A stretch of 63,556 nt of DNA from an uncultured Desulfobacteraceae bacterium (lineage in GTDB: Bacteria > Desulfobacterota > Syntrophobacteria > BM002), in the NCBI GenBank assembly GCA_964346905.1, contig CAYFXH010000005.1:1-63556 (forward strand), given 5' to 3'. Within the stretch, counting starts at the first letter, position 1. Each line of letters starts with the position of its first letter. Below the pieces are notes generated by a model, which was not told the DNA's origin, did not search any database, and saw only the letters and a list, made by a program, of their open reading frames with translations. Position numbers and translations under genes: made by a program. Positions 3,415 to 63,556 of this stretch are shown in pieces.

Positions 3415-3431
3415 CCATAGAGTGACATGCC

Positions 3432-37133: not shown

Positions 37134-37189
37134 TAGTCTCTTTGCTTTTCTACCGTTGGACTACCCTTGGACGGTTTGATGGTCTCGCG

Positions 37190-40079: not shown

Positions 40080-40154
40080 ACGTTCACAGAAAATGATGGG
40101 TTGCACCTGCACCCTATCAGCATGAGCGCAGGGAGGATTCACTATAACAACGGT

Positions 40155-41794: not shown

Positions 41795-41924
41795 CTGCTC
41801 CTTTCCATAATGCTGAACCTCTCCAACCGAGCACGCCGAAACCCGGGACTCTAGGTCCTGAACAACGTCACATTCATACGCCAATCACACGTCTACATCG
41901 CTAACTCTCTTCACGCTAATACGA

Positions 41925-47062: not shown

Positions 47063-49378
47063 ATGGAGCACTCGAGGACTGGAGGCCTGGATTCCGGAAT
47101 AGACGCGATCGCGAAAAGAGATATGGAGCGACAGCAGGTGGCGACCTACTTTTCAGCTAATTCCCAAACTGGATACCATGGTACAGGACATGCAGGTTCA
47201 CGGTTTCACTCTGCAGTTAATGCGCCGGTAGTGGGCATTCCGCGTGGTCTTCTCTATTTCAGATACCAACCCTTATGGGCCACGTTTTTCTTTGATTTGG
47301 GGGTCGAGGTACGGGTGTCTCAACCCACCGAACGGTCTCGCTTCGAGACCGCTCAAAGCCTTACCCGCAGCGATCTCTGCCTGCCTGTCAAGGTTTTCTT
47401 GGACCACGTGGCCAGATTAAAAGACCAGGTGGACTATATCCTGCTACCTCGGGTGATCAGTGTCAGCCCCGACGCGTATATGTGTCCCAAGATCCTGGGG
47501 TTGACCGACATGGCTCGGAATGTGTTCTCCGATTTACCCACCCTGTTGACGCCCAGGATTAATGCCAAACTTCCCAAGCCCGAGGGATTTGCAGAAGCGT
47601 GTTTGGAGGTGGGACGGTACTTCAGCCGCAGCAGTTCACAGATACATAAAGCGTGGAAGGCTGCCCAGGGAGCTCAGGCCGAGTTCGAACAGCGGCTGCT
47701 GCGCTACCCCTTGGACGAGTCCCTGAGACCATGGGATGCGACTTTTAGTCAACGACACAGTGAACCTGGAACCGAACAGCGGTACCGGGTAGCAGTCATC
47801 GGCCGCCCTTACATCGCCTTTGATAGCGCTCTCAGTCACGATCTCCTCAATCTACTTAAGCGGGACAGCGTACAGGTCGTCACCCCAGAATCCCTGCCTT
47901 TCGAGGTGAAGGAAAAGGAGAGTCAGAGGCTGTCGAAGCAGGTGTACTGGCAGTTGGGTAAAGAACTGGTAGCAGCGGCCATGCACTACATGAAATGTCC
48001 TGATGTGGATGGCATCGTTAATGTCTCCAGTTTTGGCTGTGGGCAGGATTCGTTCACCAACGCGCTGGTGGAGTATTACGTCACCAAACACTCAGAGAAA
48101 GCATATCTCAATCTGGTCCTGGATGAGCACACAGCCGACGCCGGGTTGAATACCCGAGTGGAGGCGTTCCTGGACATGGTGGACCAGAGGAAAAAAAACG
48201 GAGTTTCAGGGTCAAGAGAGCTTAAGGAGGATGCAGAGCCACTTAGATCCAAGAAGCTTGTAAAGCAACCCAAACCCCATGACATGCACCTGACCATTCC
48301 CCATATGGGTCATCTCCACCTGGGCTTCGAGCAGGTGTTCAAGAATCTCGGCGTGCACATAACCATGCCGCCCCGCCCCAACAAAGAAGCTTTGCTGTTG
48401 GGTACGCGCTATTCCCCTGAGTGTGCCTGCCTGCCGTTTAAATTCAATCTGGGCAACATGATCCAGGCGATGAATCAAGGCGCCACCGACATCATGATGC
48501 CCGGCGGCTTCGGTCCCTGCCGTTTTGGTTACTACAGCGTGATCCAGGAACAGATCCTGCGGGATCTCGGCTACGAGTTCAGAATGGGTCGTGCAGATGA
48601 CCCGGACAGTCTCCGTGACATGCTCGATATGGTCAAGAGAATCGCGGGACTGAATACTAAGTGGGACTCCTACAAGGTCTTTTTCTTTATTCTCCATCGT
48701 CTCGCCCTGGTGGACTGGTCCCTACGGCGGGCCCACTGGTTGCGGCCCAGAGAAATTGACAGACGTTCCACTGACCGGGCTCTTCGTCGTTGCCTGAAGA
48801 TAATTGACCAGACAAGTAGATTCCGCGACTTGTGGCGAGCAAAGCAGGAGGTGCGTCGGGTATTGGCCTCGGTTGCTTACGACCGCAGCCGCCCCGTTCT
48901 CCGGGTAGGCATTGTCGGCGAGATATTCATGGTGCTGGAAAATTACGCCAACATGAATGTGGAAGAACGGCTGGGGGAGATGGGAGTTGAGGTCCATCGT
49001 GGCGTTTGGCTGAGTGACTGGCTCAATGACCGCTATCGTTTTAAACTCTTCAGGCGGAATCAATTCAAGTGGTCCCTCAGTCAGGCAGCACCATACTTGT
49101 GCGAACCCAGTGGGGGTGAAAGCGTGAAATCCATAGGCAAATCTGTCTGCTTTGCCAAAAAGGGATTTGACGGAATCGTCCATCTGATGCCCTTCACGTG
49201 CATGCCGGAGCTGGTGGCCCAGACGATTCTGACCAAAGTGTCAAGCGATTATAATATCCCGGTGCTTACCCTAATCTTCGATGAGCATACTTCGCCTGGT
49301 GGGGTGCAAACCCGGCTGGAGGCCTTTGTAGATCTGATACACCGTAAAAGAGGTTTAAAGGGAAAAAATGGCGATTAA
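47063..49378 (+). CDS. 2-hydroxyacyl-CoA dehydratase / benzoyl-CoA reductase-superfamily protein (DUF2229-type N-half + HgdB/D-component-like C-half)
   Basis: 771 aa. VGIPRGLLYFRYQPLWATFFFDLGVEVRVSQPT...DLCLPVKVFLDHV is typical of the CoA-enzyme-activase-associated domain. The second half has RVGIVGEIFMVLENYANMNVEERLGEMGVEV and MPFTCMPE. Confidence 0.7.
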   Translation: MEHSRTGGLDSGIDAIAKRDMERQQVATYFSANSQTGYHGTGHAGSRFHSAVNAPVVGIPRGLLYFRYQPLWATFFFDLGVEVRVSQPTERSRFETAQSLTRSDLCLPVKVFLDHVARLKDQVDYILLPRVISVSPDAYMCPKILGLTDMARNVFSDLPTLLTPRINAKLPKPEGFAEACLEVGRYFSRSSSQIHKAWKAAQGAQAEFEQRLLRYPLDESLRPWDATFSQRHSEPGTEQRYRVAVIGRPYIAFDSALSHDLLNLLKRDSVQVVTPESLPFEVKEKESQRLSKQVYWQLGKELVAAAMHYMKCPDVDGIVNVSSFGCGQDSFTNALVEYYVTKHSEKAYLNLVLDEHTADAGLNTRVEAFLDMVDQRKKNGVSGSRELKEDAEPLRSKKLVKQPKPHDMHLTIPHMGHLHLGFEQVFKNLGVHITMPPRPNKEALLLGTRYSPECACLPFKFNLGNMIQAMNQGATDIMMPGGFGPCRFGYYSVIQEQILRDLGYEFRMGRADDPDSLRDMLDMVKRIAGLNTKWDSYKVFFFILHRLALVDWSLRRAHWLRPREIDRRSTDRALRRCLKIIDQTSRFRDLWRAKQEVRRVLASVAYDRSRPVLRVGIVGEIFMVLENYANMNVEERLGEMGVEVHRGVWLSDWLNDRYRFKLFRRNQFKWSLSQAAPYLCEPSGGESVKSIGKSVCFAKKGFDGIVHLMPFTCMPELVAQTILTKVSSDYNIPVLTLIFDEHTSPGGVQTRLEAFVDLIHRKRGLKGKNGD

Positions 49379-49962: not shown

Positions 49963-50937
49963 CTAGAGGTCACCGGTTTCCCATTTACCGCAACGATCCC
50001 CCCACCGTACCAAGCGCTCCTGGCCTGCGGCCACCGGTACTCTGACCTCCATGACCTCGCAGCCGTTGGAGCAACCCTCACATTCAAAACCGTTGAGCTC
50101 GTAAGGTATCTCTCCAACCTCAAAACCGAGGAAGCGAGTTTGTTTGCTTGAGTCCACCACTTCCTTGGCCAAGAGCGCGGCACCAATGGCTCCCATTACC
50201 TCAAAATCAGGGGGAACAACCAATCCTTTTCCCAGAACTCGCTCAAACGCAGTTCGCATGCCCACATTTGCAGCTACACCACCCTGAAACAGAATAGGTT
50301 GGCGTAGCTCCTGGCTCTTGACCAGATTGTTCATATAATTGCGCACGAGGGCCTCACATAGACCGGCGATGATATCTTCCACACTGTGGCCCATCTGCTG
50401 TTTGTGGATCATGTCCGACTCTGCAAACACGGTGCAACGACTGGCAATTTTTACCGGTTTTCTGGCTCTGAGGGCGTATTCACCAAAGGATTCAATGGGG
50501 ATTCCCAAGCGGTACGCCTGTTGGTCAAGAAAGGAACCGGTACCGGCGGCACACACCGTGTTCATGGCAAAGTCGATTACGGTGCTGTTGCGCAAGATAA
50601 TACTCTTGGAATCCTGTCCGCCAATTTCGATGATTGACTGGATGTCTGGTTCATAATGGAGGGCTGCCACAGCGTGGGTGGTGATCTCGTTCTTGATCAC
50701 ATCGGCACCTATGAGAATGCCGGCCAGGTAACGTCCACTGCCAGTGGTGCCTGCACCGGCTATGGTCAACTCTCCGTCCATTTTCTGAGCCATTTCCAGG
50801 AGACCATTTTGCATCGCCTTCATGGGTTGGCCGTGGGTGCGCAAGTACTGCTTGTGAAGCACTCGACCAGCATCATCCATGAGCACCAGGTTGGTGCTGA
50901 TGGAACCAACATCGATTCCGAGGTAAGCGGCTTTCAT
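49963..50937 (-). CDS. BadF/BadG/BcrA/BcrD-type ATPase (HgdC-like activase) with a Cys-rich C-terminal tail
   Basis: The ATG at 50937 follows AAAGGA. Contains MKAAYLGIDVGSISTNLVLMD, EIGGQDSK and CAAGTGSFLD. The tail is FECEGCSNGCEV...CGKW. Confidence 0.8.
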   Translation of the reverse strand: MKAAYLGIDVGSISTNLVLMDDAGRVLHKQYLRTHGQPMKAMQNGLLEMAQKMDGELTIAGAGTTGSGRYLAGILIGADVIKNEITTHAVAALHYEPDIQSIIEIGGQDSKSIILRNSTVIDFAMNTVCAAGTGSFLDQQAYRLGIPIESFGEYALRARKPVKIASRCTVFAESDMIHKQQMGHSVEDIIAGLCEALVRNYMNNLVKSQELRQPILFQGGVAANVGMRTAFERVLGKGLVVPPDFEVMGAIGAALLAKEVVDSSKQTRFLGFEVGEIPYELNGFECEGCSNGCEVMEVRVPVAAGQERLVRWGDRCGKWETGDL

Positions 50938-51072
50938 GGACACATCCTTTTGCAATGTCAGTTGTCCGTGGTTCGTAGTCAGTTGCATGGAAGTGTGAAA
51001 AGTCAATCCATTGAGATCATACCTTAAATGGGCACATTTGGCGACGATTCTCTTGTGGAAAATGGAGCTTTA

Positions 51073-51206: not shown

Positions 51207-53792
51207 TCATCCTAATCTCCCCGTCTCCCTTTGCCCGTGTCCCCGTGGCAATCTTTGCTCACACCATGACAGCACTGCCGGCAGCAGAATGAGAGCGGCA
51301 AGAAGGCAGCTGAGGATGCCCAGGCCGGTAACCCAGCCGATGCTGCGCAGACCGGGATAATGGGAGCTCACCAAGGAACCGAACCCTATGGTGGTGGTCA
51401 AGGAGGTAAGTACAATGGCGCGACCTATTTGCCTGAGAACCACCGTTAGGCTCTGTGTCGACTCCTCTCGCCAGTGGTGGACAATGTGAATGCCATCATC
51501 AATCCCGATCCCCACGATCAGAGGCAATACAATGAAGTTGGCGTAATTAAATGGCAGTGACGCCAAGGCCATAACCCCCAACATGGCAATGATTCCGGCA
51601 ACCAGGGGAATGATAGCGAGAGCTGCAGTCAAAGGGTGTCGCAGAGCCAAAAGCAGTGCCACCGTGATAGCCACACCGGCCAGAACGAGGGAGTCGCCCA
51701 AATCTTGCCAGACCAGGCCTTTGAGATGATCTGTCAAAACCGGCCATCCGGCCAGCCGCCACTGGCTCTGACTCAGGCCACTTTCGGCCACGGCCCTTTG
51801 AAGATCCAGGGTTAAACGCTTCAGATCGCTCTTACGCCACAACCCTTCCCGGGGATAGATAAAGGTGAACAGCTTTTTGTTTTGCCCGTGACCCACCAGA
51901 AAAAGATCCAGCAAGCCCTGGAGATTGGCTTGCTGGAACGTTCCTGAATCAACCTCTCCGCTGGGCTGCACCAGTGTTCTCAACCAGCGCAGATATGCGT
52001 CGTACTCAGGGAGAAAGTGGAAACCGTTCTCCTGAAGGGCCTGTTTGAAGGAGGCTTCGATACGATCAGGATTGAGCTCCGCACCGTGGCGATGGAAGAA
52101 CTCCAGTGCCTTCCGCTGGCCCTCCGGTGCCGGCCAGTAGGAAAGAATGCTGCGATAGTGCGACAATCTCCCCGCACTCTGCAGTCGGTTCAAAGCCTTC
52201 TCAATACGCCAGGCGCGATTCAGCAGTACCGCATCGCTATCACCCTCCAAGACCAGGAGCAGATATCCGCTGGCGCCACCCAGGATGGACTCAAGTTGTT
52301 TCTCCACGGCCATGTGGTCTGCTTGTTGGGGCCGCAAAGCCCGGAGCTCTTCTTCAAAGGAGACGTCAAAGGCTGACACCCCAAGGATTGTCAACAAGAC
52401 CAGGCTGGTTGCCACAACTAGGCGTGGACGGGCTACCACGGAGCTGATCAGGGACTCGAGACCAAAGTTGGGAATAGGTCGGGCCGAGCCCAGGATTCCA
52501 CCACGGTTCTGCTGGTAAACAAGGAGAGCAGGAAGCACCACCAGCATGGCGGTGAGGCAGGCAATCATGCCCACACCGGTAATGATACCCAGTTCTTGAA
52601 ATCCCCTGAAAGAAGATGCTCCCAGAGCAAAAAAGGCTGCCGCAGTAGTCAGTCCTCCCATGAGAATTGCACGACCGCTTTTCGTCAATGCCAGGTGCAG
52701 CGCGGTTGGCTGGTTCTGACTCTGAGAGGCCTCCACATATAGGTTGAGCAAGTGTATGGCGAAGTCAATACCGAGTCCCAAGAGAACGGCGGCGAAGGCA
52801 CCGGTGAGGATGTTGACGTGGCCGAAAATAAGCTGCAAAGCCCCGAAGGTCCAGATAAGGGCCATGCCCAGTGGTAGGAGCATGAGAAAAAGGATGCGCA
52901 GCTGTCGAAAGACGAGATAAAAGAGAAGGGTAACACCGAGGAACGAGATGATGAAGCTGCTTTGCAAATCTCTACGGGTAAGAGCCTCGTCCTCCAGGGC
53001 AATGGGATATCCGCCGGCGAAAGAGACAGTGGGAGCGATAGGGTCGCCGGGGTGAGATTGCTGCCAGTTGCGAACGGCGTTTTCGGCTGCCGCCGAAACA
53101 GCAGCCATGAGACGTTTGGTGTATTCGATGTTTCGCGCCGATTGCTCGGGCCGTATGAATATCAGAAGATGACGGCGGCTCTTATCCACCAGGTAGCCAT
53201 CCTCCAGATCAAGGCCGGCAAAAGAACGCTGGGCAAACCAGCGGGAAAGCCAGAGGTGGCGCAGTCCCAGAGGGTCTCTTACGATGAGTTCCCTGACTCC
53301 ACCCTGCATTGGCATCAACAGGAGACGTTTGTTTTCTCGCACCTGATTGTGAATGGAAGCATCACTCAGCCGGTGGAGCAGATCAAGCCTTTCCTTTTCG
53401 GAGAGAAACAAGGCAGCATGAGGCATAAGAACCTCAGTGAAGAAGCGTTTCTGTTGGCTGCTAACCCTGGCCTCCAGATACCCTATGTGCGGGAAAGATG
53501 TTATTTCTTCAACAAATGCATCGACTACTTGCTTGCCGCTTTCCAGGTCTCCAGGTTCAGGGAGACTGACCAGCACGACAAGCACGTCCTGAGGGCCCGC
53601 TTCCTGCAGATCGGCCAATAGTTTTCTGGCCTGGCTGTCTCTGGACGGCATGAGAGAGTCGAGGCTGGAGTCCATTCGGAGCTGGGTGATGAGTACAATG
53701 GACAGTCCGGTGAGAAGGGCAGCGCTCAGCAGAATCAGCCGATGGCCTCGGACAATGCGGTCAGCAAGAGCTGCAAAGAGAGTCTGGGCCAT
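51207..53792 (-). CDS. MMPL/RND-superfamily (sterol-sensing-domain-type) lipid exporter
   Basis: 861 aa. It has two blocks of about 6 TM helices, each preceded by a large soluble loop. Sample motifs are GIDFAIHLLNLY and GIGIDDGIHIVHHW. Confidence 0.8.
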   Translation of the reverse strand: MAQTLFAALADRIVRGHRLILLSAALLTGLSIVLITQLRMDSSLDSLMPSRDSQARKLLADLQEAGPQDVLVVLVSLPEPGDLESGKQVVDAFVEEITSFPHIGYLEARVSSQQKRFFTEVLMPHAALFLSEKERLDLLHRLSDASIHNQVRENKRLLLMPMQGGVRELIVRDPLGLRHLWLSRWFAQRSFAGLDLEDGYLVDKSRRHLLIFIRPEQSARNIEYTKRLMAAVSAAAENAVRNWQQSHPGDPIAPTVSFAGGYPIALEDEALTRRDLQSSFIISFLGVTLLFYLVFRQLRILFLMLLPLGMALIWTFGALQLIFGHVNILTGAFAAVLLGLGIDFAIHLLNLYVEASQSQNQPTALHLALTKSGRAILMGGLTTAAAFFALGASSFRGFQELGIITGVGMIACLTAMLVVLPALLVYQQNRGGILGSARPIPNFGLESLISSVVARPRLVVATSLVLLTILGVSAFDVSFEEELRALRPQQADHMAVEKQLESILGGASGYLLLVLEGDSDAVLLNRAWRIEKALNRLQSAGRLSHYRSILSYWPAPEGQRKALEFFHRHGAELNPDRIEASFKQALQENGFHFLPEYDAYLRWLRTLVQPSGEVDSGTFQQANLQGLLDLFLVGHGQNKKLFTFIYPREGLWRKSDLKRLTLDLQRAVAESGLSQSQWRLAGWPVLTDHLKGLVWQDLGDSLVLAGVAITVALLLALRHPLTAALAIIPLVAGIIAMLGVMALASLPFNYANFIVLPLIVGIGIDDGIHIVHHWREESTQSLTVVLRQIGRAIVLTSLTTTIGFGSLVSSHYPGLRSIGWVTGLGILSCLLAALILLPAVLSWCEQRLPRGHGQRETGRLG

Positions 53793-54031
53793 AAATAAAT
53801 CTCGCCCCTCTATCCGGTGGTTTTACCTAGGTCAAGCCGTCTCATCTGGACGTGGTTAGGGAGAGATCATAACTCCCTGGAAGTATTGGAGTAGTATGAT
53901 CGTTACATGTTTCATGCCACCTGTTGTGTCCTGAAAGCTGGCACAACACACCACTACTTCATCAATCCAGTATACAACCAGATACTCCGGACGTTGCTTC
54001 TTTTCTCTTGTTAGTGTATCTGGCCTTTGCC

Positions 54032-54066
54032 AAAAAAAAAGGAGCAGGCGTTCACGTGCCTGCTCT
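54032..54066 (-). terminator. Rho-independent terminator of the ATP-grasp/radical-SAM/NHL operon
   Basis: The minus strand reads GAGCAGGC-ACGTGAAC-GCCTGCTC (8 bp stem, 8 nt loop), then C and T9. It lies 63 nt after the stop of the NHL gene. Confidence 0.8.
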
Positions 54067-54128
54067 CTACAAGGATTGCCCACTATGTACTGAGAAGGAA
54101 CCAGGTTATGGTACCCTATTCGCATCAG

Positions 54129-55796
54129 TTAACGGGAAAACTTCTGCACCCGTGAGTTGGCCGTGTCGGCCACGTACACATTTCCGGCTCCATCCGCACT
54201 GAGTCCATACGGCTTGATGAACTGCCCGGAGCTCGTGCCTGGTCCACCGTAGGATCTGAGACTCTGTCCGGTTGGACTCATTTCCCAGATCAAGGCGGTG
54301 GCAGCATCCAGTACCAACAGGTTCCCCGAGGTCCGGTCCAAGGCTACATCAGCAGGATATTTCAGTCGGTCGGTGAAGGCGGCAAGAAACCGACCTTGGA
54401 AGTCGAACTTTTGCACCCTCCGCATCTTGCTGTCTGCAACGTAGACATTACCGTTTTCATCCACTGTCAGCCCCATGGGTTCGACAAAATCGCCGCTGCC
54501 CTTGCCTTTGCGGCCCCAGGCGCGTAAGAATCTCCCCTGATTGTCGAACACCTGGACCCGGTTCAGTTTGGCATCCACCGTGTAAATGGACCCCTCCGGT
54601 CCCACTGCAATCCCGCTCAAAAAAGCAAAATCGCCGTTTCCGTTGCCTTTCCGGCCCCACTGGCCGAGATAAACGCCGTTGGCATCAAATTTTTCTACCC
54701 GAAAATTGTAGGTGTCGGCAACGTACACATTGCCTTCACCGTCCACGGCCACATCGTAGGGGCGAGCCAAACTACCAGAACCAGTCCCCTCCTGTCCCCA
54801 GCTCTTTAAGAAGGTACCGCCGGTATCAAATACTTGGATCCGGTTGTTGTACGTGTCCGCCACATAAATGTTGCCAAAACCATCTGCCGCTAGCCCAAAT
54901 GGTTTGAGAAAATCTCCGGAGCCTGTACCTGGCACGCCCCAGGCTTGAGCAAAACGGAGGGTGGTGCTCGGGCCCACCGAAGATGGAAGACCGAGCAAGG
55001 GCCTATCCACCCTGGCAGCTGCAGCTCCCATGGAAATCACATTTTGGCCCACCGATACGGTCTCATTGGTTTTCTGCTCAACCACCCTGGTAAAGGCTAG
55101 CTTCTCCTGAGCCTCGGTGACCTGAAGCTTACCCGTGTGGATTTTTTCGACTCCCAGAATCTCCCCTGAGACCGGGTGCTTGATGATCTCGCCTTCCCGG
55201 TAGACTTCAAATTGCATACCTGGTTTTGCCCCAGCAGACTTTCCCAGATCAATGATGAAAGTCTCTTCTTTCTGGTGGATGATGAATCCCCGCAGGGGAA
55301 ACTTGCTCACCAATTGGGCCACAAAAGGGTTTATCTTTCGGGACATGGCGCCAACGCTGGTGGCTGCCAAGCGATCGGCCACTTTAATGGTAGCACTTTC
55401 CGTCTCAATAATTTTCACGTTCAAATCAAGACCTTGTCGGTGACTGATAACCGCGCCAGTGGCTATGTAGGTGGCTCCCAGGACCCGCCCCAATTGGGCC
55501 GCAGTATCGACATCGATAACCCCGGTTATGCCCAATTGTTGCTCTTCCATGACCTTTTGCAACGCTTGGCGTTCGATAACATCAAAACGGCCTTGTTTTA
55601 CGAAAGCGGTAGTGAGCCACTGGGCTGCAATCTTACCCAGATCCTGAGACTTGGCTTTCTCTCCTTGCGCTTCCAGATCCACCACGGCGATCCTGGTACG
55701 AGTCGTAGCATGCACGTGTGTCTGGGAGGTAACCCAGAAAAAGAGGGCAACGGTCAAAATCACGCAGCTTACACCCACCCGCTGGTTTGGCTTCAT
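54129..55796 (-). CDS. Secreted CsgG/LpoB-like N-domain fused to a six-bladed NHL-repeat beta-propeller
   Basis: 555 aa with a signal peptide. Contains RIAVVDLEAQG...GRFDVIERQALQKVMEEQQLG...GATYIATGAV, then six repeats of the type G.F..P.G.A.D..GN.YVADT.N.R.Q.F. Confidence 0.75.
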   Translation of the reverse strand: MKPNQRVGVSCVILTVALFFWVTSQTHVHATTRTRIAVVDLEAQGEKAKSQDLGKIAAQWLTTAFVKQGRFDVIERQALQKVMEEQQLGITGVIDVDTAAQLGRVLGATYIATGAVISHRQGLDLNVKIIETESATIKVADRLAATSVGAMSRKINPFVAQLVSKFPLRGFIIHQKEETFIIDLGKSAGAKPGMQFEVYREGEIIKHPVSGEILGVEKIHTGKLQVTEAQEKLAFTRVVEQKTNETVSVGQNVISMGAAAARVDRPLLGLPSSVGPSTTLRFAQAWGVPGTGSGDFLKPFGLAADGFGNIYVADTYNNRIQVFDTGGTFLKSWGQEGTGSGSLARPYDVAVDGEGNVYVADTYNFRVEKFDANGVYLGQWGRKGNGNGDFAFLSGIAVGPEGSIYTVDAKLNRVQVFDNQGRFLRAWGRKGKGSGDFVEPMGLTVDENGNVYVADSKMRRVQKFDFQGRFLAAFTDRLKYPADVALDRTSGNLLVLDAATALIWEMSPTGQSLRSYGGPGTSSGQFIKPYGLSADGAGNVYVADTANSRVQKFSR

Positions 55797-57175
55797 TTCT
55801 GGTCTCCTTGCAACCGCCTGGACTGGGAATACGCCTGCCAGGCCGGATCGGCGAACGACTTGTACGAGTCAGCAAACTCATCCATGGAATCAGCCAGTTG
55901 GGTGAAGATCAAATCCGCCCCCTCATGGGTGAAGTAGGCCCCGTGGTTCAGCGCCATCTCACGGCCCACCTCAGGGTGATCCACAAGCATGCAGGGGCGA
56001 TACAAGTTGTCGTCGTATGGTATCTTTGCTTTTATTGCCTGAAACAAGGGAGAGTTGAGGGCTTCTTTCAATGAGGTGTTATGGATGTTGTGGGTGGCAA
56101 AGTGGCAAAACACACAGGGCTCCACATCACCCTTGGCATTGATGTGCGCATACTTGCGAGCGCCGGACATGCAGCCATTCACCACCGGACCATCATTCCA
56201 AAAATCTATGAACAGCATTGCCTTGCTATTGCGCCAGCGGCCCAGGCACGCCCTCAGATAATCTCTTTGAGCGGGAGTAGGCATGAGTTCGGTTTTAGGA
56301 TCCCTTCCCACCGGGACATACATGAAGTAGCAGCCGAGAAGGCACCCTTTTTCACTCATGAAATCTATGAATTCGTCGCTGGTGATGATGTCGTGATTCT
56401 CTTTGGTTTGCGTGGCGGAGTAGCCAAAGAGCACCCCCCCATCACGAAGCATGTCCATGGCCTGCATAACCCGGTCGAAGTGACCTTTTCCTCGCCTCTG
56501 ATCTGTGTATTCCCTGTAGCCCTCAATGCTGATAGAGGGTAGGACATTGCCCACCGAGACGATCTTTTCCACTATTTTTTCGTCAACAAGGCCCCCGTGG
56601 GTATACACCAGGAAGGACATATCATTGTGCTTCCGGAAAATATCAAAAATGTCCTTCCGGAAGAAAGGCTCACCCCCAGAAATGGTGATGAAATAGATGC
56701 CCATTTCCTTGGCCTCATCGAGGATCCGGTCTATGGTCTCAAAACTCAATTCGTCATTCTGCGTGTAGCTGCCCGCATAGCAGCCAAAACAGTTGAGGTT
56801 GCAGCGCATGGTGGGGCTGATTACCAGGAATCCCGGGGGGTAGTAGCCTCCGGGATCTTGAGCGAAGGCTTTACGTTTGTTGGTGCCTACCAGGAGTTGG
56901 TTGATAACGTAGCTTTGGATGATGGTCTTGCGGTGGTGGGGGTTGAGAGACCGAAGTATTTTCTTGGTAATTTCCAGGCTGGGATGTCCCTGGTCAAAAA
57001 GATCTCGAATCCACCGAATCCGGTGAACATAGTAGTCCCTCTTCGCGAGCTTTTCGGCAAGCTTGGCCACCGTCAGGTAGATGAGCTTGAACAGTTTGTC
57101 GTTGCTTACATGGGCCAGGGAAGCCATCAACAGATTAATGGCGTGAACTTCCAACCGATGGTTATTGGTCTTCAA
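55793..57175 (-). CDS. Radical SAM enzyme with a long helical N-extension and a C-terminal auxiliary-cluster-like Cys motif
   Basis: 460 aa. Contains ISPTMRCNLNCFGCYAGSY (CX3CX2C) and ITISGGEPF. The C-terminal region has GCMSGARKYAHINAKGDVEPCVFC...YRPCM. It has a 4 nt overlap with the NHL gene. Confidence 0.85.
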   Translation of the reverse strand: MKTNNHRLEVHAINLLMASLAHVSNDKLFKLIYLTVAKLAEKLAKRDYYVHRIRWIRDLFDQGHPSLEITKKILRSLNPHHRKTIIQSYVINQLLVGTNKRKAFAQDPGGYYPPGFLVISPTMRCNLNCFGCYAGSYTQNDELSFETIDRILDEAKEMGIYFITISGGEPFFRKDIFDIFRKHNDMSFLVYTHGGLVDEKIVEKIVSVGNVLPSISIEGYREYTDQRRGKGHFDRVMQAMDMLRDGGVLFGYSATQTKENHDIITSDEFIDFMSEKGCLLGCYFMYVPVGRDPKTELMPTPAQRDYLRACLGRWRNSKAMLFIDFWNDGPVVNGCMSGARKYAHINAKGDVEPCVFCHFATHNIHNTSLKEALNSPLFQAIKAKIPYDDNLYRPCMLVDHPEVGREMALNHGAYFTHEGADLIFTQLADSMDEFADSYKSFADPAWQAYSQSRRLQGDQK

Positions 57176-57243
57176 TGTTCTCCTCCAAAGCTCAGGAGTT
57201 TACTCAATTTTAAAGCCACGTCCTTTGCGCTTGGTTTCTCTAC

Positions 57244-57744
57244 TCACACTATTAGATGCCAGAGGCGAATGAGGCCATCACCGATGCCCACGAACATTAG
57301 ACTGCCTAAAATACTTCCGCTAATCAAGAGGGAAAAACTTGTTTTTTTGGGGAGACCAATGATATGAGCCAGAAAAACCCCGCTCCACATGCCACCTCCC
57401 TTCACTGGCAGCATGGTGAGAAGTACTACTCCCGCATGCCCTAGAGTTTTAAATCTCTGGAAAAAGTGTCTTTCCTTAGTGGCATCGCCTTTTCGCTGAA
57501 AATGTTTCCTGAGCCGTTGTAGCCGTTCACTGGTGAATGTATGTTCATAAAGGTAATAAAAACAAGGAATCTGCAAAGTATCCATAAAAACAACGAGGGG
57601 GAAAAACAAGAGGAGATTGAGCCTGAATAGACTGGCGGTTAAAACCGCTGCGGGTCTTCCCCCTAAGATATAGAGAGCGATGAAGTACAGGAGGCTGTGC
57701 TCATGAATGTGCTGCTGCAGCCATGCGATCAGATCGCCCATCAA
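57244..57744 (-). CDS. Small polytopic membrane protein, putative small-multidrug-export (COG2426-like) family
   Basis: 166 aa with 4-5 hydrophobic spans and an LPVKGGGMWSGVFLAHIIGL motif. Confidence 0.5.
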   Translation of the reverse strand: MMGDLIAWLQQHIHEHSLLYFIALYILGGRPAAVLTASLFRLNLLLFFPLVVFMDTLQIPCFYYLYEHTFTSERLQRLRKHFQRKGDATKERHFFQRFKTLGHAGVVLLTMLPVKGGGMWSGVFLAHIIGLPKKTSFSLLISGSILGSLMFVGIGDGLIRLWHLIV

Positions 57745-57839
57745 TTCAACACCAAGGGTCCAGCCTCCAGTGAAGAGGTCGGAAGTCTTAATTATTTAGC
57801 GTAACTGTAGGTATTTTTCAATTACTTTTTGCCTCGTGT

Positions 57840-59126
57840 TCAGATTCTCCTTCTCATACGGACATGGATAAAGTCTTTACTCCCGTAAAAGGGCAGCAAG
57901 GCCAGCAAACTCCCAAAGATTGGCAGAGGATCGTCCAGGTCAATGATGTCATAGCGCAAATTCGGTTGGTGGAATTCAAAAAAGCTCGGTTTCAGTTGCC
58001 AGCGATTGGGGTTTTGCAGGAAGTGGAGAATATCTCCCGGAAGGAGCCAGCGGCAACGCTGTCCCACCTTGTAGTGGTGCACAGTAGGAACATCCAAACC
58101 CAGGGCCATTAAGGCCAGCAGGTAGGGGAAATTCACCCCAGCATGGATTGCTAGGGCCAATGATCCCCAAAAGCGAGGATTTACCTCTAGCAGCTTGGCT
58201 TTGCCATCGCGAGTATCGATTTTGAATTCAGCCATGGCCACGCCCACCAAATGGAGGCTCTCCAAGAGTCTCGCCCCGTCACGTCTCGCCTGGTCATGGA
58301 TAAAGCTTTCGCGCAGAGTACTGGGCCCACCATCTACTGGGTACTCTCGAAGGCGGCGATGGATAAAGCTGGCTCGCACCTGATGATCTTGATCCAGCAG
58401 GAAACTGGCGCCAATCCCTGCACCCTGAGGTGGCAATCTTTCCTGCAGCAATGGCAGTTGTCCAGAATGAAACACTCGCTCCAGGGCAGCGACTAACTGC
58501 TCTGGCCCCGCCACGTATTGGACCCCAGCGCTTCCTGACCCCACTCTCGGCTTGACCACCACCGGATACTCCAGCTTTCTGCTCAGTGGTTTGGCTTCTT
58601 CTATAGTGGTAATCTCGAAGGTTCTCGGAATGGGGATACCCAGTGCTTCTGCTCGCCTGAGCACCTTCAGTTTGTCACGAGCGAAGAGCAAACTCTGGTA
58701 CGCGGCAAAAGGGAGACGAGTTTTATCTTGAAATCGCTCCCTGTTTTGGGCAAGCAGCAGCAGGGTGTCCTCCTCCATTGGCATAAGCACGTGGTGGGGT
58801 TGTCGATCCAGATAGTTTTCGAGAAAGACAAGGTATTGGGACGGCTGCAGAACAGGGGATGGGGTGCGGACCCGGCGGTGACAGTAGCGGGAGAAGAGCG
58901 CGGGCGCCAGATAGGTGCTCTCACCGACGGTAACTCGCATCCCCATGCGGCCAAGGGCTCGAACCGCGGCAAGCGTCTTGCGCCAGTAACCATCGGTGAT
59001 GAAGATACGAGTCTTTTTCAGGTCCGTGGGGACTTGTCCTGGGAGTGAGTTGGGAAGGTGGGTACGGCAACTCTTGTGCAGGTCGGCCTTGCTGCTGAGG
59101 GCGAAATTCCATATCGTACTGTTCAT
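57840..59126 (-). CDS. ATP-grasp-fold carboxylate-amine/thiol ligase-like protein
   Basis: 428 aa. Contains IFITDGYWRKTLAAVRALGRMGMRV, YPVVVKPRVGSGSAGV and MAEFKIDTRDGKAKLLEVNPRFWGS. Confidence 0.75.
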   Translation of the reverse strand: MNSTIWNFALSSKADLHKSCRTHLPNSLPGQVPTDLKKTRIFITDGYWRKTLAAVRALGRMGMRVTVGESTYLAPALFSRYCHRRVRTPSPVLQPSQYLVFLENYLDRQPHHVLMPMEEDTLLLLAQNRERFQDKTRLPFAAYQSLLFARDKLKVLRRAEALGIPIPRTFEITTIEEAKPLSRKLEYPVVVKPRVGSGSAGVQYVAGPEQLVAALERVFHSGQLPLLQERLPPQGAGIGASFLLDQDHQVRASFIHRRLREYPVDGGPSTLRESFIHDQARRDGARLLESLHLVGVAMAEFKIDTRDGKAKLLEVNPRFWGSLALAIHAGVNFPYLLALMALGLDVPTVHHYKVGQRCRWLLPGDILHFLQNPNRWQLKPSFFEFHQPNLRYDIIDLDDPLPIFGSLLALLPFYGSKDFIHVRMRRRI

Positions 59127-59493
59127 GAGTTTGTCAGGATTAGACGTTTAGCTGGACCGTGGTATAGTACTATAGCAAATGGGCGAGGGATTCAATGCCA
59201 TATTCTCCTGTCTACACCGGGATGCAACCTGAGTCAACCTTGACGCGAAAGGCATAATCTGATAAACAACACTACCTCTCCCCAGCCAATTTTTCTTCCT
59301 TCGCTACGAGAAAATTGTGTTCGTTCTCAAGAGGCCCACCAGAACTAACTGGTGCCAAGAGAAATAGAAGCTCGTCGGCCTGGTAAGAGATTGGGATTTT
59401 GACGGCACAGTAAATCCGCCTGAACCGGACCAGATGCAATCCCGCCGAGGGCGGGACACCTGGACTTTTTGCGAAGCCGTCAAGCTTGGTTCT

Positions 59494-60234
59494 ATGAGAT
59501 TCAAGGGTAAAATCGCTCTTATAACTGGTGGAATCCGAGGCATTGGTGCGGCCATTAGCAAGAGTTTCCTTCTCGAGGGTGCCCATGTTGTGGTAACCTA
59601 TTCCCAGGATCAAGATCAGGCGCGAACATTTCAAGAGGAACTCGGGACCAGTGCTCCACAAGCGATTGTTCACCGTGCAGACGCGTCTGACTTTGATGGT
59701 ATGAAAATTCTGGTCGAGCAAACCCTTGAGCAATTTGGCCGTCTGGATATCCTGGTAAACAACGCCGGAATTCGGCGTGACAACCTGGTAATGTTCATGT
59801 CTGAAGCAGAGTGGCATGATGTGCTGCGGGTGAATCTCCAGGGTACTTTCGTCTGCTCCAAGCTGGCACTGAAACCCATGATTGCCCAGCGGTGGGGACG
59901 GATGATCAACATCGTCTCACCGAGTGCATTAATGGGTCGTCAAGGCCAGGCCAACTATGCCGCAGCCAAAGGGGGTGTAGCAAGCTTCACCAAGTCTCTG
60001 GCAAGAGAGGTGGGTAAGCTCGGTATCACTGTCAATGCCGTGTCTCCTGGGGTCATTGAGACCGATATGACTCGTTCCTTGCCTGAAAAAACCCTGGCTG
60101 AACTGAAGCAGTCCATCCCCATGGGCCAATTCGGCCGACCGGAAGATGTGTGCGGAACAGTTTTGTTCCTGGCCTCAGAGGGAGCCTCTTATATTACCGG
60201 ACAAGTTATCAGGGTGGATGGAGGTTTGACCTGA
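59494..60234 (+). CDS. fabG: 3-oxoacyl-ACP reductase (SDR)
   Basis: The internal ATG at 59494 gives MRFKGKIALITGGIRGIGAAIS. Also present are NNAGI, GQANYAAAKGG and GQVIRVDGGL. Confidence 0.85.
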   Translation: MRFKGKIALITGGIRGIGAAISKSFLLEGAHVVVTYSQDQDQARTFQEELGTSAPQAIVHRADASDFDGMKILVEQTLEQFGRLDILVNNAGIRRDNLVMFMSEAEWHDVLRVNLQGTFVCSKLALKPMIAQRWGRMINIVSPSALMGRQGQANYAAAKGGVASFTKSLAREVGKLGITVNAVSPGVIETDMTRSLPEKTLAELKQSIPMGQFGRPEDVCGTVLFLASEGASYITGQVIRVDGGLT

Positions 60235-60286: not shown

Positions 60287-60607
60287 ATGAAGGAGGAACT
60301 GGCATTGCAAATGTCCTTGTTAGAGCGGGAAGATCTCGTCGAACATCTGAAGGCGCTCCTTGTCCGCACTCTCCGTTTAGAAGACATTGGCCCGGAGGAC
60401 ATCGTTGACTCAGAGCCCCTGTTTGGCGATGGGCTAGGCCTCGATTCCATCGATGCCCTGGAATTGGTGGTTGCCATCGAGAGGGAGTACGCTGTTGAGA
60501 TCCCAGACGCGGAGGTGGGACGGCGTGCTTTTGCTTCAGTCGATGCGCTGGCGGATTTCATACGTGAGAAGGGGGCGGTGCAAAAGGCTTCCGATGCGGT
60601 GGGTTGA
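60287..60607 (+). CDS. Acyl carrier protein (long form)
   Basis: 106 aa. Contains LFGDGLGLDSIDALELVVAIE, with the phosphopantetheine Ser in DSID. Confidence 0.8.
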   Translation: MKEELALQMSLLEREDLVEHLKALLVRTLRLEDIGPEDIVDSEPLFGDGLGLDSIDALELVVAIEREYAVEIPDAEVGRRAFASVDALADFIREKGAVQKASDAVG

Positions 60608-61019
60608 AACCACGACGAAGGTCAGGTTCAATGAGGTGGATCAATGGGGCATAACCTGGTACGGTCACTATTTTGCCTGGTTTGAACTGGCTCGGATGAA
60701 AGTTCTGGAGAAGTTCTCCCTCCTTCCCGAAGACTTCACCGCTTTGGGGTTTGTGGCACCGGTGGTGAATGCCCATTGCGAATTCAAGAAACCAGCCCGC
60801 ACCAATGACCTCATACAGATACGAGCACACCTTCTGAAGCCACAGACGGCATCTCTGACCTTTCAATTCGAAATTCTGTTGCAGAATGACGAATCTTTGC
60901 TCGCCAGGGGTGAAACGGTTCAGGTCTTACAGCGGTTGGATGGAACCATGATATACAAACTAACCGGCACCCTCAAAGAGCGGGTGGAGTCGATGGTCCA
61001 ATATTTTTGGCCCGAATAA
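60594..61019 (+). CDS. 4HBT/YbgC-type hotdog thioesterase
   Basis: The ATG at 60594 overlaps the ACP stop by 14 nt. Contains TKVRFNEVDQWGITWYGHYFAWFELARMKVLEK. Confidence 0.7.
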   Translation: MRWVETTTKVRFNEVDQWGITWYGHYFAWFELARMKVLEKFSLLPEDFTALGFVAPVVNAHCEFKKPARTNDLIQIRAHLLKPQTASLTFQFEILLQNDESLLARGETVQVLQRLDGTMIYKLTGTLKERVESMVQYFWPE

Positions 61020-61230: not shown

Positions 61231-61668
61231 ATGTCACTCTCCCATGAACAGGTTCAGAACTTGCTGCCTCACAGATATCCCTTTCTCTTCGTCGACAAAG
61301 TCACTTCCCTGGAACCTGGTCATAGAGTGGAAGGTACATTCCAGGTAAAAGGTGACCACCCCTTCATTAACAAGGTCGGCGAGATTCCAGTTTTTCCAGC
61401 CTTTCTGGTGGTTGAAGCCCTGGGGCAAGTGGCGGCGCTCTGTATCCGTTATCCCCAGCAAAAATCTTCACCTGTACCTGGTGGCCAAGGTTTTCTGGTT
61501 CGCATTGACCAATGTTCATTGGAAAAACCAGCCCGGCCGGAGGACGAGTTACTTTTGACAGCCAATCTGGTGAGAGGATTTACCACCCTTTATAAATTCG
61601 AGGCAAAAGGTTTCGTTGATGGCCAAGTAGTGGTGAAGGCGTCCTTGACCCTTTACCTGGAGTTCTAG
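61231..61668 (+). CDS. FabZ/FabA-like hotdog beta-hydroxyacyl-ACP dehydratase
   Basis: 145 aa. Contains LLPHRYPFLFVDKV and DHPF...FPAFLVVEALGQ (His/Glu pair). Confidence 0.8.
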   Translation: MSLSHEQVQNLLPHRYPFLFVDKVTSLEPGHRVEGTFQVKGDHPFINKVGEIPVFPAFLVVEALGQVAALCIRYPQQKSSPVPGGQGFLVRIDQCSLEKPARPEDELLLTANLVRGFTTLYKFEAKGFVDGQVVVKASLTLYLEF

Positions 61669-61671
61669 CAT

Positions 61672-62403
61672 ATGGCAGTCCCCAAAGATGCAGCATCTTT
61701 CAGATTGTGTGGACTGGTTCCTGCTTTCAATCTTTCTCGTACTATTTCTCAGGTTGTCCGGCAAACCCGGCAGTACCTACCCGAGGTTCTGGTAGTGGAT
61801 GATGGTTCCCAGGATGATACGGCCCAACTGGCCAAGAAAAGTGGCGCCAAAGTTCTCAAAATTCCCAGAAACCAAGGGAAAGGGTGGGCCTTGCGATGTG
61901 GTATCAGGTATTTGCTGCAGGATCCATGGGAGGGGATAATCACTCTTGACGGCGACTTGCAGCACGATCCAACCGAGATCCCCAAACTCGTCCAGGAGTA
62001 TGAACGCACAGGTGCACACATTGTCGTTGGCTCTAGAATGGAGGAGGCGAAAAAGATTCCCTGGATTCGCTATTGGACCAATAGAGTTGGAGTCTACTGC
62101 ATCTCGTGGGCGGCCGGGCAGCCGTTGGCGGACACCCAAAGCGGCTTCCGTGTTTACCGCAGAGAGGTTTTTGAATTGATTCCGCTCTGGACCACTCGTT
62201 ACGATACCGAGACGGAAATCTTGATCAAAGCCGGCATGCGGGGAATGAGGATCACATCTGTTCCCATACAAACGATTTATCATAAGGATGATGCAAACAG
62301 CTCTTCTTTCCGACCTTTTCCGGATACTTTCCTCATTTGCATGGTGTTCTTGAAAAGCCTCTTCTGGCGAAAGGGGTTGTATTTACGTGATTTTGAGATA
62401 TGA
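61672..62403 (+). CDS. Family 2 glycosyltransferase
   Basis: 243 aa. Contains VPAFNLSRTISQVV, VVDDGSQDDT, RNQGKGWAL and DGDLQHDP. It starts 4 nt after the dehydratase stop. Confidence 0.8.
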   Translation: MAVPKDAASFRLCGLVPAFNLSRTISQVVRQTRQYLPEVLVVDDGSQDDTAQLAKKSGAKVLKIPRNQGKGWALRCGIRYLLQDPWEGIITLDGDLQHDPTEIPKLVQEYERTGAHIVVGSRMEEAKKIPWIRYWTNRVGVYCISWAAGQPLADTQSGFRVYRREVFELIPLWTTRYDTETEILIKAGMRGMRITSVPIQTIYHKDDANSSSFRPFPDTFLICMVFLKSLFWRKGLYLRDFEI

Positions 62404-62494
62404 GATAACCGATATCGTTGGAGTGGAGGAGTACTCCGTAGACTTTGACTGCTCTCACGTCTGTGGAGCCTTTAAAACATTGGGGTGGGGTTAG

Positions 62495-63556
62495 ATGAGT
62501 AGGTCGGATGTAATTGTCACCGGAATAGGTGTTGTCTGCGCTCTCGGGGAGAATAAGGACTTATTTTGGAATGCTCTACGTCAGGGCACATGCGGAATCG
62601 GCTCCATAGATCTCTTTAATGTTTCGGGGTACCGCAGCCGTATCGGTGGTCAGGTAAGAGATATTGATTTCTTCTCCCGACTCTCCCCGCACCATTGTCG
62701 TCGGTTGGGACGTTGCGATCTTTTAGGGCTTTGGGCTGCCCATGAAGCTTTAGAGGAAGCGAAAATCATGGAACGCGCCCTTCCTCCCGAGCGCATTGCC
62801 GTCGTCCTAGGTGCAGGTGCCGGCGGTGTACTGGAGGCAGAGCAATACCGCCGCCAGCTCTACGAGGGTCTGGTGCGACCGCGTCCATCTCTGCTTATGC
62901 CGTTTCCGGCCTGCAACCTCACCGACGCCATCGGCAACCTTTACGGTTTTCACGGACCTCGATCTACCATTGCCACCGCTTGCTCTTCCAGTGCTACCGC
63001 CATAGGCTATGGCGCAGATCTCATTCAGTCTGGCCAAGCTGAGGTGGTTATTGTCGGAGGTGCTGAGTCCCTCTCGGAACTTACCTTTTCCGGCTTCAAC
63101 GCGCTCCGCTCAGTGGATCGCTCCACCTGCCGACCTTTTGATCGGAATCGGGAAGGGTTGGTGCTCGGCGAGAGCGGAAGTATTCTGGTGCTCGAGTCAC
63201 GGCGGTTCGCCGAGGCCCACGGGATATCTGGTTATGCTCGCGTGCTTGGATATGGCATTTGTGCCGACGCCTACCACATGACTTCTCCCGATCCTCAGGG
63301 GGAGGGAGCAGAAAGAAGTATGGCCAATGCACTTAACAATGCAGCGGTACCTGCAGATGCAGTGGACTATGTCAACGCCCACGGCACCGGCACGGTACTC
63401 AATGACAGAGTGGAGACTATGGCGATCAAGCGGCTTTTCGGCAAAAGGGCCCAATCGATGCCGGTCAGTTCCGTCAAATCCGCCATTGGACACTGTCTCG
63501 GTGCCGCCGGAGGGGTGGAGGCTGCCGCCACCATCTTGGCCCTCCATCACGGGGTA
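62495..63556 (+). CDS. Beta-ketoacyl-ACP synthase I/II-type condensing enzyme; the 3' end runs off the right window edge
   Basis: Not in the ORF track because there is no stop in the window. Hand translation gives MSRSDVIVTGIGVVCALG... It contains IATACSSSATAIG (Cys), ADAYHMTSP (His) and VNAHGTGT (His). The frame is open to 63556. Confidence 0.85.
   Translation, partial: MSRSDVIVTGIGVVCALGENKDLFWNALRQGTCGIGSIDLFNVSGYRSRIGGQVRDIDFFSRLSPHHCRRLGRCDLLGLWAAHEALEEAKIMERALPPERIAVVLGAGAGGVLEAEQYRRQLYEGLVRPRPSLLMPFPACNLTDAIGNLYGFHGPRSTIATACSSSATAIGYGADLIQSGQAEVVIVGGAESLSELTFSGFNALRSVDRSTCRPFDRNREGLVLGESGSILVLESRRFAEAHGISGYARVLGYGICADAYHMTSPDPQGEGAERSMANALNNAAVPADAVDYVNAHGTGTVLNDRVETMAIKRLFGKRAQSMPVSSVKSAIGHCLGAAGGVEAAATILALHHGV

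Follow-up and report, generated by a model that had tools for sequence, protein, structure and literature searches.

The stretch of DNA analysed here (hereafter the window) comprises 63,556 nucleotides (nt) of an uncultured Desulfobacteraceae bacterium (assembly GCA_964346905.1, contig CAYFXH010000005.1) and carries four adjoining genes that encode an ATP-grasp ligase, a small membrane protein, a radical S-adenosylmethionine (SAM) enzyme and a secreted CsgG/NHL protein. We propose, with a probability of about 0.55, that these genes serve tailoring and export as one arm of a ~28-kb lipid cluster, in which the radical SAM enzyme would couple lipid tails in the manner of Mss and Gms and the ATP-grasp enzyme would form an amide. 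The cluster would be of the "ladderane-type" or aryl-polyene-like type II fatty acid synthase (FASII) class found in Desulfobacterota, Geobacterales and Nitrospirota. The four open reading frames (ORFs) all lie on the minus strand within 54032-59126, at the coordinates of the initial annotation:

57840-59126, minus strand: ATP-grasp carboxylate-amine ligase-type enzyme, 428 aa (Pfam matches above cut-off)
57244-57744, minus strand: small membrane protein of family PF06695 (Sm_multidrug_ex), 166 aa (Pfam)
55793-57175, minus strand: radical SAM enzyme with a partial SPASM/twitch domain, 460 aa, the core of the unit (Pfam)
54129-55796, minus strand: secreted protein with CsgG/LpoB-like, FlgT_C-like and NHL domains, 555 aa (Pfam and NCBIfam domains)
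54032-54065, minus strand: intrinsic-terminator-like hairpin with an 8-bp stem and 8-nt loop, followed by C and T9

Between the first three genes lie gaps of 95 nt and 68 nt; the third and fourth overlap by 4 nt. Read on the minus strand from 54065 to 54032, the terminator has a GC-rich stem and runs GAGCAGGC-8 nt-GCCTGCTC, then C and T9. Gene order, spacing and terminator were therefore exactly as first annotated. Promoter and terminator scans returned nothing beyond shuffled expectation except this one strong terminator behind the NHL gene, and neither a tRNA nor an Rfam family was found near the unit or elsewhere in the window. Chance ORFs were excluded by strong profile matches and by orthologues of 71-87% identity in at least five other species. 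The description of the unit as a "self-contained operon" did not survive comparison with relatives. The four genes are one arm of a larger conserved cluster and occur together only in the nearest clade. The radical SAM gene forms the core of the unit, and its three partners are accessories that reach less and less far.

We compared the proteins of the window with six-frame ORFs of 84 loci (numbered L) centred on the radical SAM gene; a contig scan had supplied the closest 80 out of at least 587. Within 10 kb of the radical SAM gene lay genes for B12-binding radical SAM enzymes (40 loci), family 2 glycosyltransferases (GT2; 37), acyl carrier proteins (ACP; 36), LpxL-type acyltransferases (34), thioesterases (34), FabD (27), FabG (25), MMPL exporters (13), BcrAD activases (13) and HGD proteins (11). 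The partners from the unit itself were found within the same distance at 17 loci (ATP-grasp), 11 (PF06695), 8 (CsgG) and 7 (NHL).

Gene content followed the identity of the radical SAM proteins. At 77% or more (L003-L009, L013), all loci were compatible with the order ATP-grasp, PF06695, radical SAM, CsgG/NHL, and the proteins were 71-87% identical. At 66-70%, Syntrophobacteraceae had the ATP-grasp, radical SAM and MMPL genes without PF06695 and without the NHL protein, and at 56-58% (L002, L015-L017) the order was ATP-grasp, polysaccharide deacetylase, PF06695, radical SAM, MMPL. The MMPL gene directly followed the radical SAM gene in L011, L012, L002 and L015-L017. At 51-57%, in Geobacterales, Desulfuromonadales and Nitrospirota, the ATP-grasp gene was missing and the order ran deacetylase, GT2, radical SAM, acyltransferase, ACP, B12-binding radical SAM, FabD, thioesterase, B12-binding radical SAM, ketoreductase, ketosynthase (KS), chain-length factor (CLF), LolA. 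Syntrophaceae (51-53%) had a single-strand operon of ATP-grasp, GT2, radical SAM, HGD, BcrAD, B12-binding radical SAM, acyltransferase, ACP, FabD, thioesterase and B12-binding radical SAM genes. At 50% or less, the radical SAM gene was solitary, both in Zixibacteria, Omnitrophota, Patescibacteria, Atribacterota and Armatimonadota and in Actinomycetota (Humimicrobiia), Chloroflexota, Bacteroidota, Synergistota and Planctomycetota; its neighbours among the loci checked were housekeeping genes (threonyl- and phenylalanyl-tRNA synthetases, SecDF/RecJ, PanC, MatE).

With distance from the window, then, ATP-grasp, PF06695 and CsgG/NHL drop out one by one, and the radical SAM gene stays with the FASII-like cluster. 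The radical SAM gene is the conserved core; the other three are accessories. To the question of whether the four genes co-occur in related genomes, the 84 loci gave a split answer: they do so in the nearest clade and not beyond it. One locus, L085 (10001-17739), was a compact variant in which ATP-grasp and GT2 genes were accompanied by divergent genes for a CrtI/phytoene-desaturase-like enzyme and a B12-binding radical SAM enzyme, and then by radical SAM-SPASM and HGD-D genes. It had no fatty-acid-synthase genes within 10 kb, which hints that the enzymes of the cluster can act on ordinary membrane lipids.

The larger cluster spans ~28 kb; in the window it extends from ~35.4 kb past 63.5 kb. 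The ATP-grasp arm diverges from a FabG-ACP-thioesterase-FabZ-GT2-KS arm across a 307-nt intergenic region, and an HpnN-like MMPL exporter and a BcrAD activase are encoded downstream of the unit on the same strand. Unless otherwise stated, assignments are from profile matches:

62490-63556, plus strand: FabF-like ketosynthase, running off the end of the window
61672-62403, plus strand: GT2 of the polyprenyl-phosphate sugar synthase type (best matches PpgS, AglJ and ArnC, all below cut-off)
61231-61668, plus strand: FabZ/FabA-like dehydratase
60453-61019, plus strand: hot-dog thioesterase (coordinates of the ORF)
60287-60607, plus strand: acyl carrier protein
59434-60234, plus strand: FabG-type ketoreductase, first gene of the divergent fatty-acid-synthase arm
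59127-59433, no strand: divergent intergenic region between the ATP-grasp and FabG arms (arrangement kept in relatives; no Rfam match)
51207-53792, minus strand: MMPL/HpnN-like lipid exporter of the resistance-nodulation-division type (directly after the radical SAM gene in relatives without the NHL gene)
49963-51006, minus strand: BcrAD/BadFG-type activase (PlsR-like)
47063-49378, plus strand: DUF2229 and HGD-D protein, 771 aa (PlsA/Ger-like domain set; domain matches)
45682-46638, plus strand: SAM-dependent methyltransferase
45179-45814, plus strand: SRPBCC/polyketide-cyclase-like protein (START-type, lipid-binding), between the B12-binding radical SAM and methyltransferase genes
43626-44936, plus strand: B12-binding radical SAM enzyme
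42118-43104, minus strand: LpxL/HtrB-family (lysophospholipid acyltransferase-type) acyltransferase
41081-41884, minus strand: LolA-like periplasmic lipid carrier
40155-41084, minus strand: FabD-like malonyl-CoA:ACP transacylase

The assignment of this cluster to a known class came from its relatives. The B12-binding radical SAM protein encoded beside KS/CLF passes TIGR04072 in L006 (410 bits) and in L001, a Geomonas locus (380 bits; cut-off 360). TIGR04072 is the NCBIfam model "lipid biosynthesis B12-binding/radical SAM protein" (rSAM_ladder_B12), and these matches tie the cluster to the class described by Rattray et al. 2009. The window's own B12-binding radical SAM protein scores 74.6 bits with this model, and the syntenic gene would fall past the window's end. 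In its export part (LolA2-like protein, MMPL and LpxL-type acyltransferase), the cluster resembles aryl-polyene and flexirubin clusters. Nearest to the GT2 protein in likeness are polyprenyl-phosphate HexNAc/hexose synthases. The BcrAD activase is a single-domain protein encoded apart from the DUF2229 and HGD-D protein. Together they make up the domain set known from the plasmalogen synthase PlsA/PlsR or the glycerol ester reductase Ger, for which the NCBIfam search gave no model match.

Several further observations concern individual genes of the cluster. The thioesterase ORF overlaps the ACP gene by 155 nt (60453-60607); its true start is probably near 60600, because it matches Pfam only from residue 57 onwards and its relatives have 141-152 aa. 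Past KS, the arm goes on in relatives with CLF, the B12-binding radical SAM gene (TIGR04072 equivalog) and polysaccharide deacetylase, which here lie outside the window. The DUF2229/HGD-D and BcrAD pair is conserved beside the radical SAM gene in L003, L006-L008, L011, L014, L028, L037, L044, L046 and L085. At the far end of the cluster (35412-40142, minus strand) are genes for a type I phosphodiesterase/sulfatase-like protein, an Omp85/ShlB-like outer-membrane protein and a protein with Peptidase_MA_2 and a PD40 propeller; beside FabD and LolA, these envelope proteins may belong to the same export route. The remaining genes of the window are of ordinary metabolism and regulation.

The core enzyme is a radical SAM protein, with a CxxxCxxC motif within the PF04055 core (80.4 bits, cut-off 29.5), and it also matches the SPASM profile (PF13186, 31.2 bits, cut-off 21.5). 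The cluster motif, CNLNCFGCY, begins at C125 (C125-x3-C129-x2-C132). The ~100-residue helical extension noticed ahead of it in the initial annotation was borne out by an AlphaFold2 model (mean pLDDT 83.8), in which residues 4-105 form five helices and no strand. This extension is kept across the family, including its most distant full-length members. The C-terminal cysteine cluster was likewise found as described (C335-x18-C354-x2-C357...C395), is invariant in close relatives, and is accompanied by C278. A full SPASM domain has seven cysteines for two clusters. Since just three auxiliary cysteines are conserved in distant members of the family, the sequence points to one auxiliary Fe-S cluster, twitch-like and possibly with an open site. 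Two distant full-length members, P0236 and P0245, are pseudo-radical-SAM-like proteins without CxxxCxxC that retain the N-extension and C-terminal cysteines.

No curated family claimed the radical SAM protein in an NCBIfam profile search. Its best match was of the AhbD/NirJ type and far below cut-off: the AhbD model TIGR04545 gave 96 bits (E = 2.6e-27) against a cut-off of 500, over residues 122-295 only, and the top matches as a group (AhbD, NirJ, mycofactocin maturase, StsB, HpnH, PqqE) scored 45-96 bits against cut-offs of 225-650. The relatives with solved structures were BlsE, SkfB and SuiB by sequence (generic SPASM/twitch), and SkfB, SuiB, PqqE, BlsE and anSME by fold, with GDGT-MAS at rank 29. 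Structure searches with this enzyme and with the ATP-grasp protein gave generic SPASM/twitch and ATP-grasp folds only and did not indicate substrates. We rejected a heme or cofactor maturase (AhbD/NirJ/HpnH/MoaA/PqqE), since the curated models are far below cut-off and no pathway genes adjoin. A hopanoid side-chain pathway was set aside: HpnN, HpnH, HpnJ, HpnR and HpnB recur below threshold, but there is no cyclase, and the radical SAM family occurs also in phyla without hopanoids.

The family is large: a search at E <= 1e-10 gave more than 4393 homologues, at least 587 species genomes hold a relative, and 624 clusters at 50% identity have E < 1e-30. A profile search with its distant members matched only metagenomic proteins or proteins of metagenome-assembled genomes (MAGs). 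Two paralogues, P0168 (504 aa) and P0184 (440 aa), are each ~36% identical to the protein of the window and share one set of contigs (5.8-139 kb), which suggests that they are tandem or paired in some organisms. Searches of plasmids and E. coli returned only two full-length homologues, 36-37% identical, both carried by IncF plasmids from Enterobacteriaceae: L086 (K. pneumoniae pFF1023_1, record 86720-88021) and L087 (E. albertii pEA5_1, record 2254-3633). These genes stand alone among insertion sequence elements and replication genes, and megablast gave zero matches in 5426 complete E. coli genomes.

The ATP-grasp ORF matches Pfam ATPgrasp_Ter, CPSase_L_D2 and ATP-grasp_3, each above cut-off, and so belongs to the superfamily; every NCBIfam match was far below cut-off, and no specific characterised subfamily fits. 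Its family comprises 1592 homologues of ~390 aa with 58% mean column identity. Sequence and fold searches gave no close characterised relative: the best PDB match by sequence was the structural-genomics protein 2PN1, and the top Foldseek matches were biotin carboxylase, PurK, 2PN1 and L-amino-acid ligases, a generic ATP-grasp fold. The usual start of the family is near codon 38 of the ORF (KKTRIFITDG). Only P0426 aligns to the first ~37 codons, P0432 is likewise 428 aa long, and the model is disordered at its N-terminus (pLDDT < 50 for residues 1-27).

The one constant of the ATP-grasp gene is its position in the gene maps, where it always adjoins GT2 or deacetylase. Head-group amidation, raised in the initial annotation, is possible and is now better motivated by this position. 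A comparable logic for lipid-linked amino sugars is known from the ArnC/ArnD/ArnE-F (Und-P-Ara4N), hopanoid HpnI/HpnK/HpnJ and MshA/B/C systems. By analogy, the position of the ATP-grasp gene and the type of GT2 suggest sugar transfer, N-deacetylation and then ATP-dependent ligation to the freed amine. The likeness lies in the GT2, the Polysacc_deac_1 deacetylase, a small flippase-like membrane protein and the HpnN-like MMPL exporter and, for mycothiol (MshA/B/C), in an ATP-dependent ligase acting after deacetylation. It is an analogy only; the profile matches are all far below the family cut-offs, no ArnT-like transferase was found in the window, and PF06695 is not of the SMR/EamA type.

Characterised members of the DedA superfamily are lipid scramblases or polyprenyl-phosphate transporters. 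PF06695, which the small membrane protein matches at 52.5 bits (cut-off 30.7), has been assigned to this superfamily (Okawa et al.), and by this analogy the protein would be a flippase for a lipid or lipid carrier and not a drug pump. The last gene encodes a type I signal peptide with no convincing lipobox, an N-terminal alpha/beta domain, an FlgT_C-like beta-sandwich and a six-bladed NHL propeller. All six blades first counted can be read directly from the sequence (YVAD, YVAD, YTVD, YVAD, LVLD, YVAD). Identity with the curli channel CsgG was rejected on the signal peptide, the missing lipobox and a partial profile match (positions 6-101 of 210, the N-terminal 45%). Because only this part is matched, the CsgG-like region is an alpha/beta domain like those of LpoB, FlgO and TolB-N and not a channel. 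The "fusion" of the initial annotation was overstated; the protein is better viewed as a TolB-like layout and a lineage-specific accessory, probably a periplasmic scaffold. It is 72-80% identical across at least five species, and the 4-nt overlap of its gene with the radical SAM gene is kept in L006 and L007.

From these genes we infer the following path. A dedicated synthase (KS/CLF, ACP, ketoreductase, dehydratase, thioesterase, FabD) would build an acyl chain, which B12-binding radical SAM enzymes and the methyltransferase would modify and the LpxL-type acyltransferase would load onto a lipid backbone. The PlsA/Ger-like reductase may turn ester into ether bonds. The radical SAM enzyme would bind the lipid tails in a pocket of its five-helix N-extension. 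Its 5'-deoxyadenosyl radical would abstract hydrogen from an unactivated sp3 carbon, and the enzyme, aided by its single auxiliary Fe-S cluster, would join the alkyl chains by a C-C bond, as Mss, Tes and Gms do. GT2 and deacetylase would produce a lipid-linked hexosamine, to whose free amine the ATP-grasp enzyme would ligate a carboxylate via an acyl-phosphate. The PF06695 protein would flip the lipid or its carrier over the inner membrane, and MMPL and LolA, joined in this lineage by the secreted CsgG-N/NHL scaffold, would take the product to the outer membrane.

One comparison behind tail coupling is with Mss, the synthase of membrane-spanning lipids in bacteria (T. ethanolicus WP_129545148.1, T. 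maritima Tmari_0825; Sahonero-Canavesi et al. 2022, PMC13159169). This radical SAM enzyme of strict anaerobes couples fatty-acid tails into diabolic or iso-diabolic acids, and its gene is usually solitary (PMC13159169). The authors' threshold for homology is E <= 1e-50 with at least 30% identity (PMC13159169). Homologues are published from Actinobacteria including Humimicrobiia, Synergistetes, Armatimonadetes, Chloroflexi, Nitrospirae and Atribacterota, and from the FCB and PVC groups, candidate phyla and delta- and gamma-Proteobacteria (PMC13159169, PMC11868695). The phyla of our radical SAM family match this list, and in many of them the gene stands alone. Mss and Ger homologues have been reported together in 34 Desulfobacterota MAGs, and our family, too, is accompanied in Desulfobacterota by Ger/PlsA-like genes. 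The published layout of Ger is a single BBD(H/D)n chain; here DUF2229 and HGD-D form one 771-aa protein and BcrAD is encoded separately. The window also differs in placing the radical SAM gene in a FAS-like cluster with an ATP-grasp enzyme, a PF06695 protein and an NHL protein, none of which is described for Mss.

Two further synthases share architecture with the enzyme. Gms, an AhbD homologue of the SPASM/twitch class (reported 36% identity, E = 7e-79), cross-links tetraether chains as the archaeal glycerol monoalkyl glycerol tetraether synthase. Its 100-residue N-terminal extension is reported to form a hydrophobic pocket through which lipid reaches the active site (Garcia et al. 2024, PMC11214058). 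The enzyme of the window shares its layout, with the ~100-aa helical N-extension. Tes/GDGT-MAS (PDB 7TOL) is a radical SAM enzyme with one or more auxiliary Fe-S clusters that forms sp3-sp3 C-C bonds between lipid tails. The comparison with tetraether and membrane-spanning lipid synthases, drawn in the initial annotation, is apt in architecture and phyla; full-length similarity to 7TOL, by sequence or fold, was not seen, and identity with Tes/GDGT-MAS was rejected. Identity with Gms was rejected too. The AhbD similarity is far weaker than that of Gms, in distant members of the family alike, so we assign the enzyme to a different family.

The cluster as a whole recalls the FASII clusters that anammox bacteria, Desulfotalea, Geobacter and Pelobacter have in common, in which radical SAM genes are joined by genes for a methyltransferase and a deacetylase-like protein (Rattray et al. 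2009). With these clusters (kuste33xx/36xx in anammox bacteria) it shares KS/CLF, a dedicated ACP, FabZ, a B12-binding radical SAM enzyme, a SAM methyltransferase, a polysaccharide-deacetylase-like gene and further radical SAM genes. Genome mining gives the label "ladderane" (an antiSMASH class) in Desulfobacterota and other non-anammox phyla, and ladderanes themselves are known from anammox bacteria only. The ATP-grasp/PF06695/CsgG-NHL arm and the PlsA/Ger-like pair are absent from the published description.

Several observations weigh against a tail-coupling, amidating arm. The strong terminator stands between the unit and the MMPL gene. The deacetylase (Polysacc_deac_1/DUF3473) falls, in this lineage, beyond the end of the window, and no ArnT-like periplasmic transferase was found within it. 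The substrate proposed for the ATP-grasp enzyme is drawn entirely from context, as its fold and sequence are those of a generic ATP-grasp. The link to Mss is circumstantial, being one of architecture and phyletic pattern alone. The protein of the window and distant members of its family match the AhbD model at ~1e-19 to 1e-27 over half of the model, unlike Gms. The alignment with 7TOL is confined to the CxxxCxxC region (72 residues, E = 3.4e-5), and by fold 7TOL ranks 29 with a TM-score of 0.37. Cultured carriers, Geobacter and Geomonas for instance, are not known to make diabolic-acid-type lipids.

In a rival reading, the same lipid cluster would use its radical SAM enzyme not to couple two tails but for other chemistry (such as cyclisation, desaturation, hydroxylation or cross-linking) on the cluster product, a lipid-linked sugar, or an ACP-bound or polyprenyl-linked intermediate. 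Such chemistry has been discussed for the unassigned radical SAM enzymes of the "ladderane-like" clusters of anammox bacteria, Desulfotalea and Geobacter. The gene is tightly linked to GT2, to which it is adjacent in Geobacterales and Syntrophaceae, and to the TIGR04072-marked cluster. In Geobacter, Pelobacter and Desulfotalea, Rattray et al. described syntenic FASII clusters that contain radical SAM genes, and Desulfotalea makes polyunsaturated hydrocarbons, not ladderanes; the compact L085 pairs the enzyme with a CrtI/phytoene-desaturase-like protein. Solitary orthologues (42-47% identity), however, lie among housekeeping genes in many phyla without the cluster, and therefore argue for a generic membrane-lipid substrate over a cluster-specific intermediate. 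We regard this alternative chemistry as a tentative possibility. It is quite unlikely, in our judgement, that the CsgG-N/NHL gene, and possibly PF06695, is an unrelated insertion and that the true pair is ATP-grasp and radical SAM within the cluster. Such an insertion would fit the restriction of CsgG/NHL to the closest clade (7-8 of 84 loci) and of PF06695 to 11 of 84, the relatives in which MMPL directly follows radical SAM, and the terminator behind the NHL gene. Yet the overlap kept in L006 and L007, together with 72-80% identity over at least five species, suggests co-translation and purifying selection in place, and other envelope proteins (LolA, Omp85-like, PD40 propeller) belong to the cluster too.

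A peptide rather than a lipid product is very improbable. ATP-grasp and radical SAM/SPASM enzymes are known to be paired in clusters for ribosomally synthesised and post-translationally modified peptides (RiPPs), so that here the two could modify a ribosomal peptide for export by the small membrane protein; the nearest solved folds are the RiPP maturases SkfB, SuiB and PqqE, and several sub-threshold NCBIfam matches are peptide maturases. All of these models are far below their cut-offs. A tblastn search with small ORFs (15-120 aa, 53700-59500) against 13 close loci found no conserved precursor, in agreement with the initial annotation: the matches were antisense shadows of coding genes only, no same-strand small ORF was kept, and the intergenic gaps are just 95 and 68 nt. 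Pfam gave no match to the PqqD-type RiPP recognition element (PF05402), and the N-extension is purely helical, without a beta-strand in the model. The conserved neighbours are all genes for lipids, fatty acid synthesis or envelope export, and elsewhere the radical SAM gene stands by itself among genes for tRNA synthetases and SecDF. On these grounds the lipid reading, which the initial annotation had offered as the alternative to a RiPP, was upheld.

"Ladderane-type" clusters, which combine FAS-like and radical SAM genes, have been noted since 2009 in Desulfobacterota, Geobacter and other anaerobes and are flagged routinely by genome mining, so that the class is known bioinformatically and not chemically. 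The window joins at one locus an Mss/Gms-like radical SAM enzyme, a PlsA/Ger-like reductase, B12-binding radical SAM enzymes and a private FAS. The ATP-grasp/PF06695/NHL arm, and its link to an Mss-like enzyme and a PlsA/Ger-like pair, are apparently undescribed in the literature. An orthologue of the radical SAM gene lies in the same cluster in culturable Geomonas, Geobacter MAGs carry one too, and some Geobacter are genetically tractable; the question of the lipid product is therefore directly testable.

A more specific and rather doubtful extension is that the cluster encodes an anaerobic pathway dedicated to methyl-branched, ether-linked, membrane-spanning envelope lipids resembling glycerol dialkyl glycerol tetraethers of the branched type (brGDGTs). 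The private FAS and B12-binding radical SAM methylases would give branched chains, the Mss-like enzyme would couple tails, and the PlsA/Ger-like protein would form ethers. GT2, deacetylase and ATP-grasp would make a new amide-substituted amino-sugar head group, flipping of this group or its carrier would fall to the DedA-type PF06695 protein, and export of the product to MMPL, LolA and the NHL scaffold. The brGDGTs are palaeoclimate proxies in wide use. Interest would be high if the cluster proved to make brGDGT-like lipids: all missing brGDGT-type steps would then be placed in one Desulfobacterota locus, and PF06695 and this ATP-grasp family would gain their first functions.

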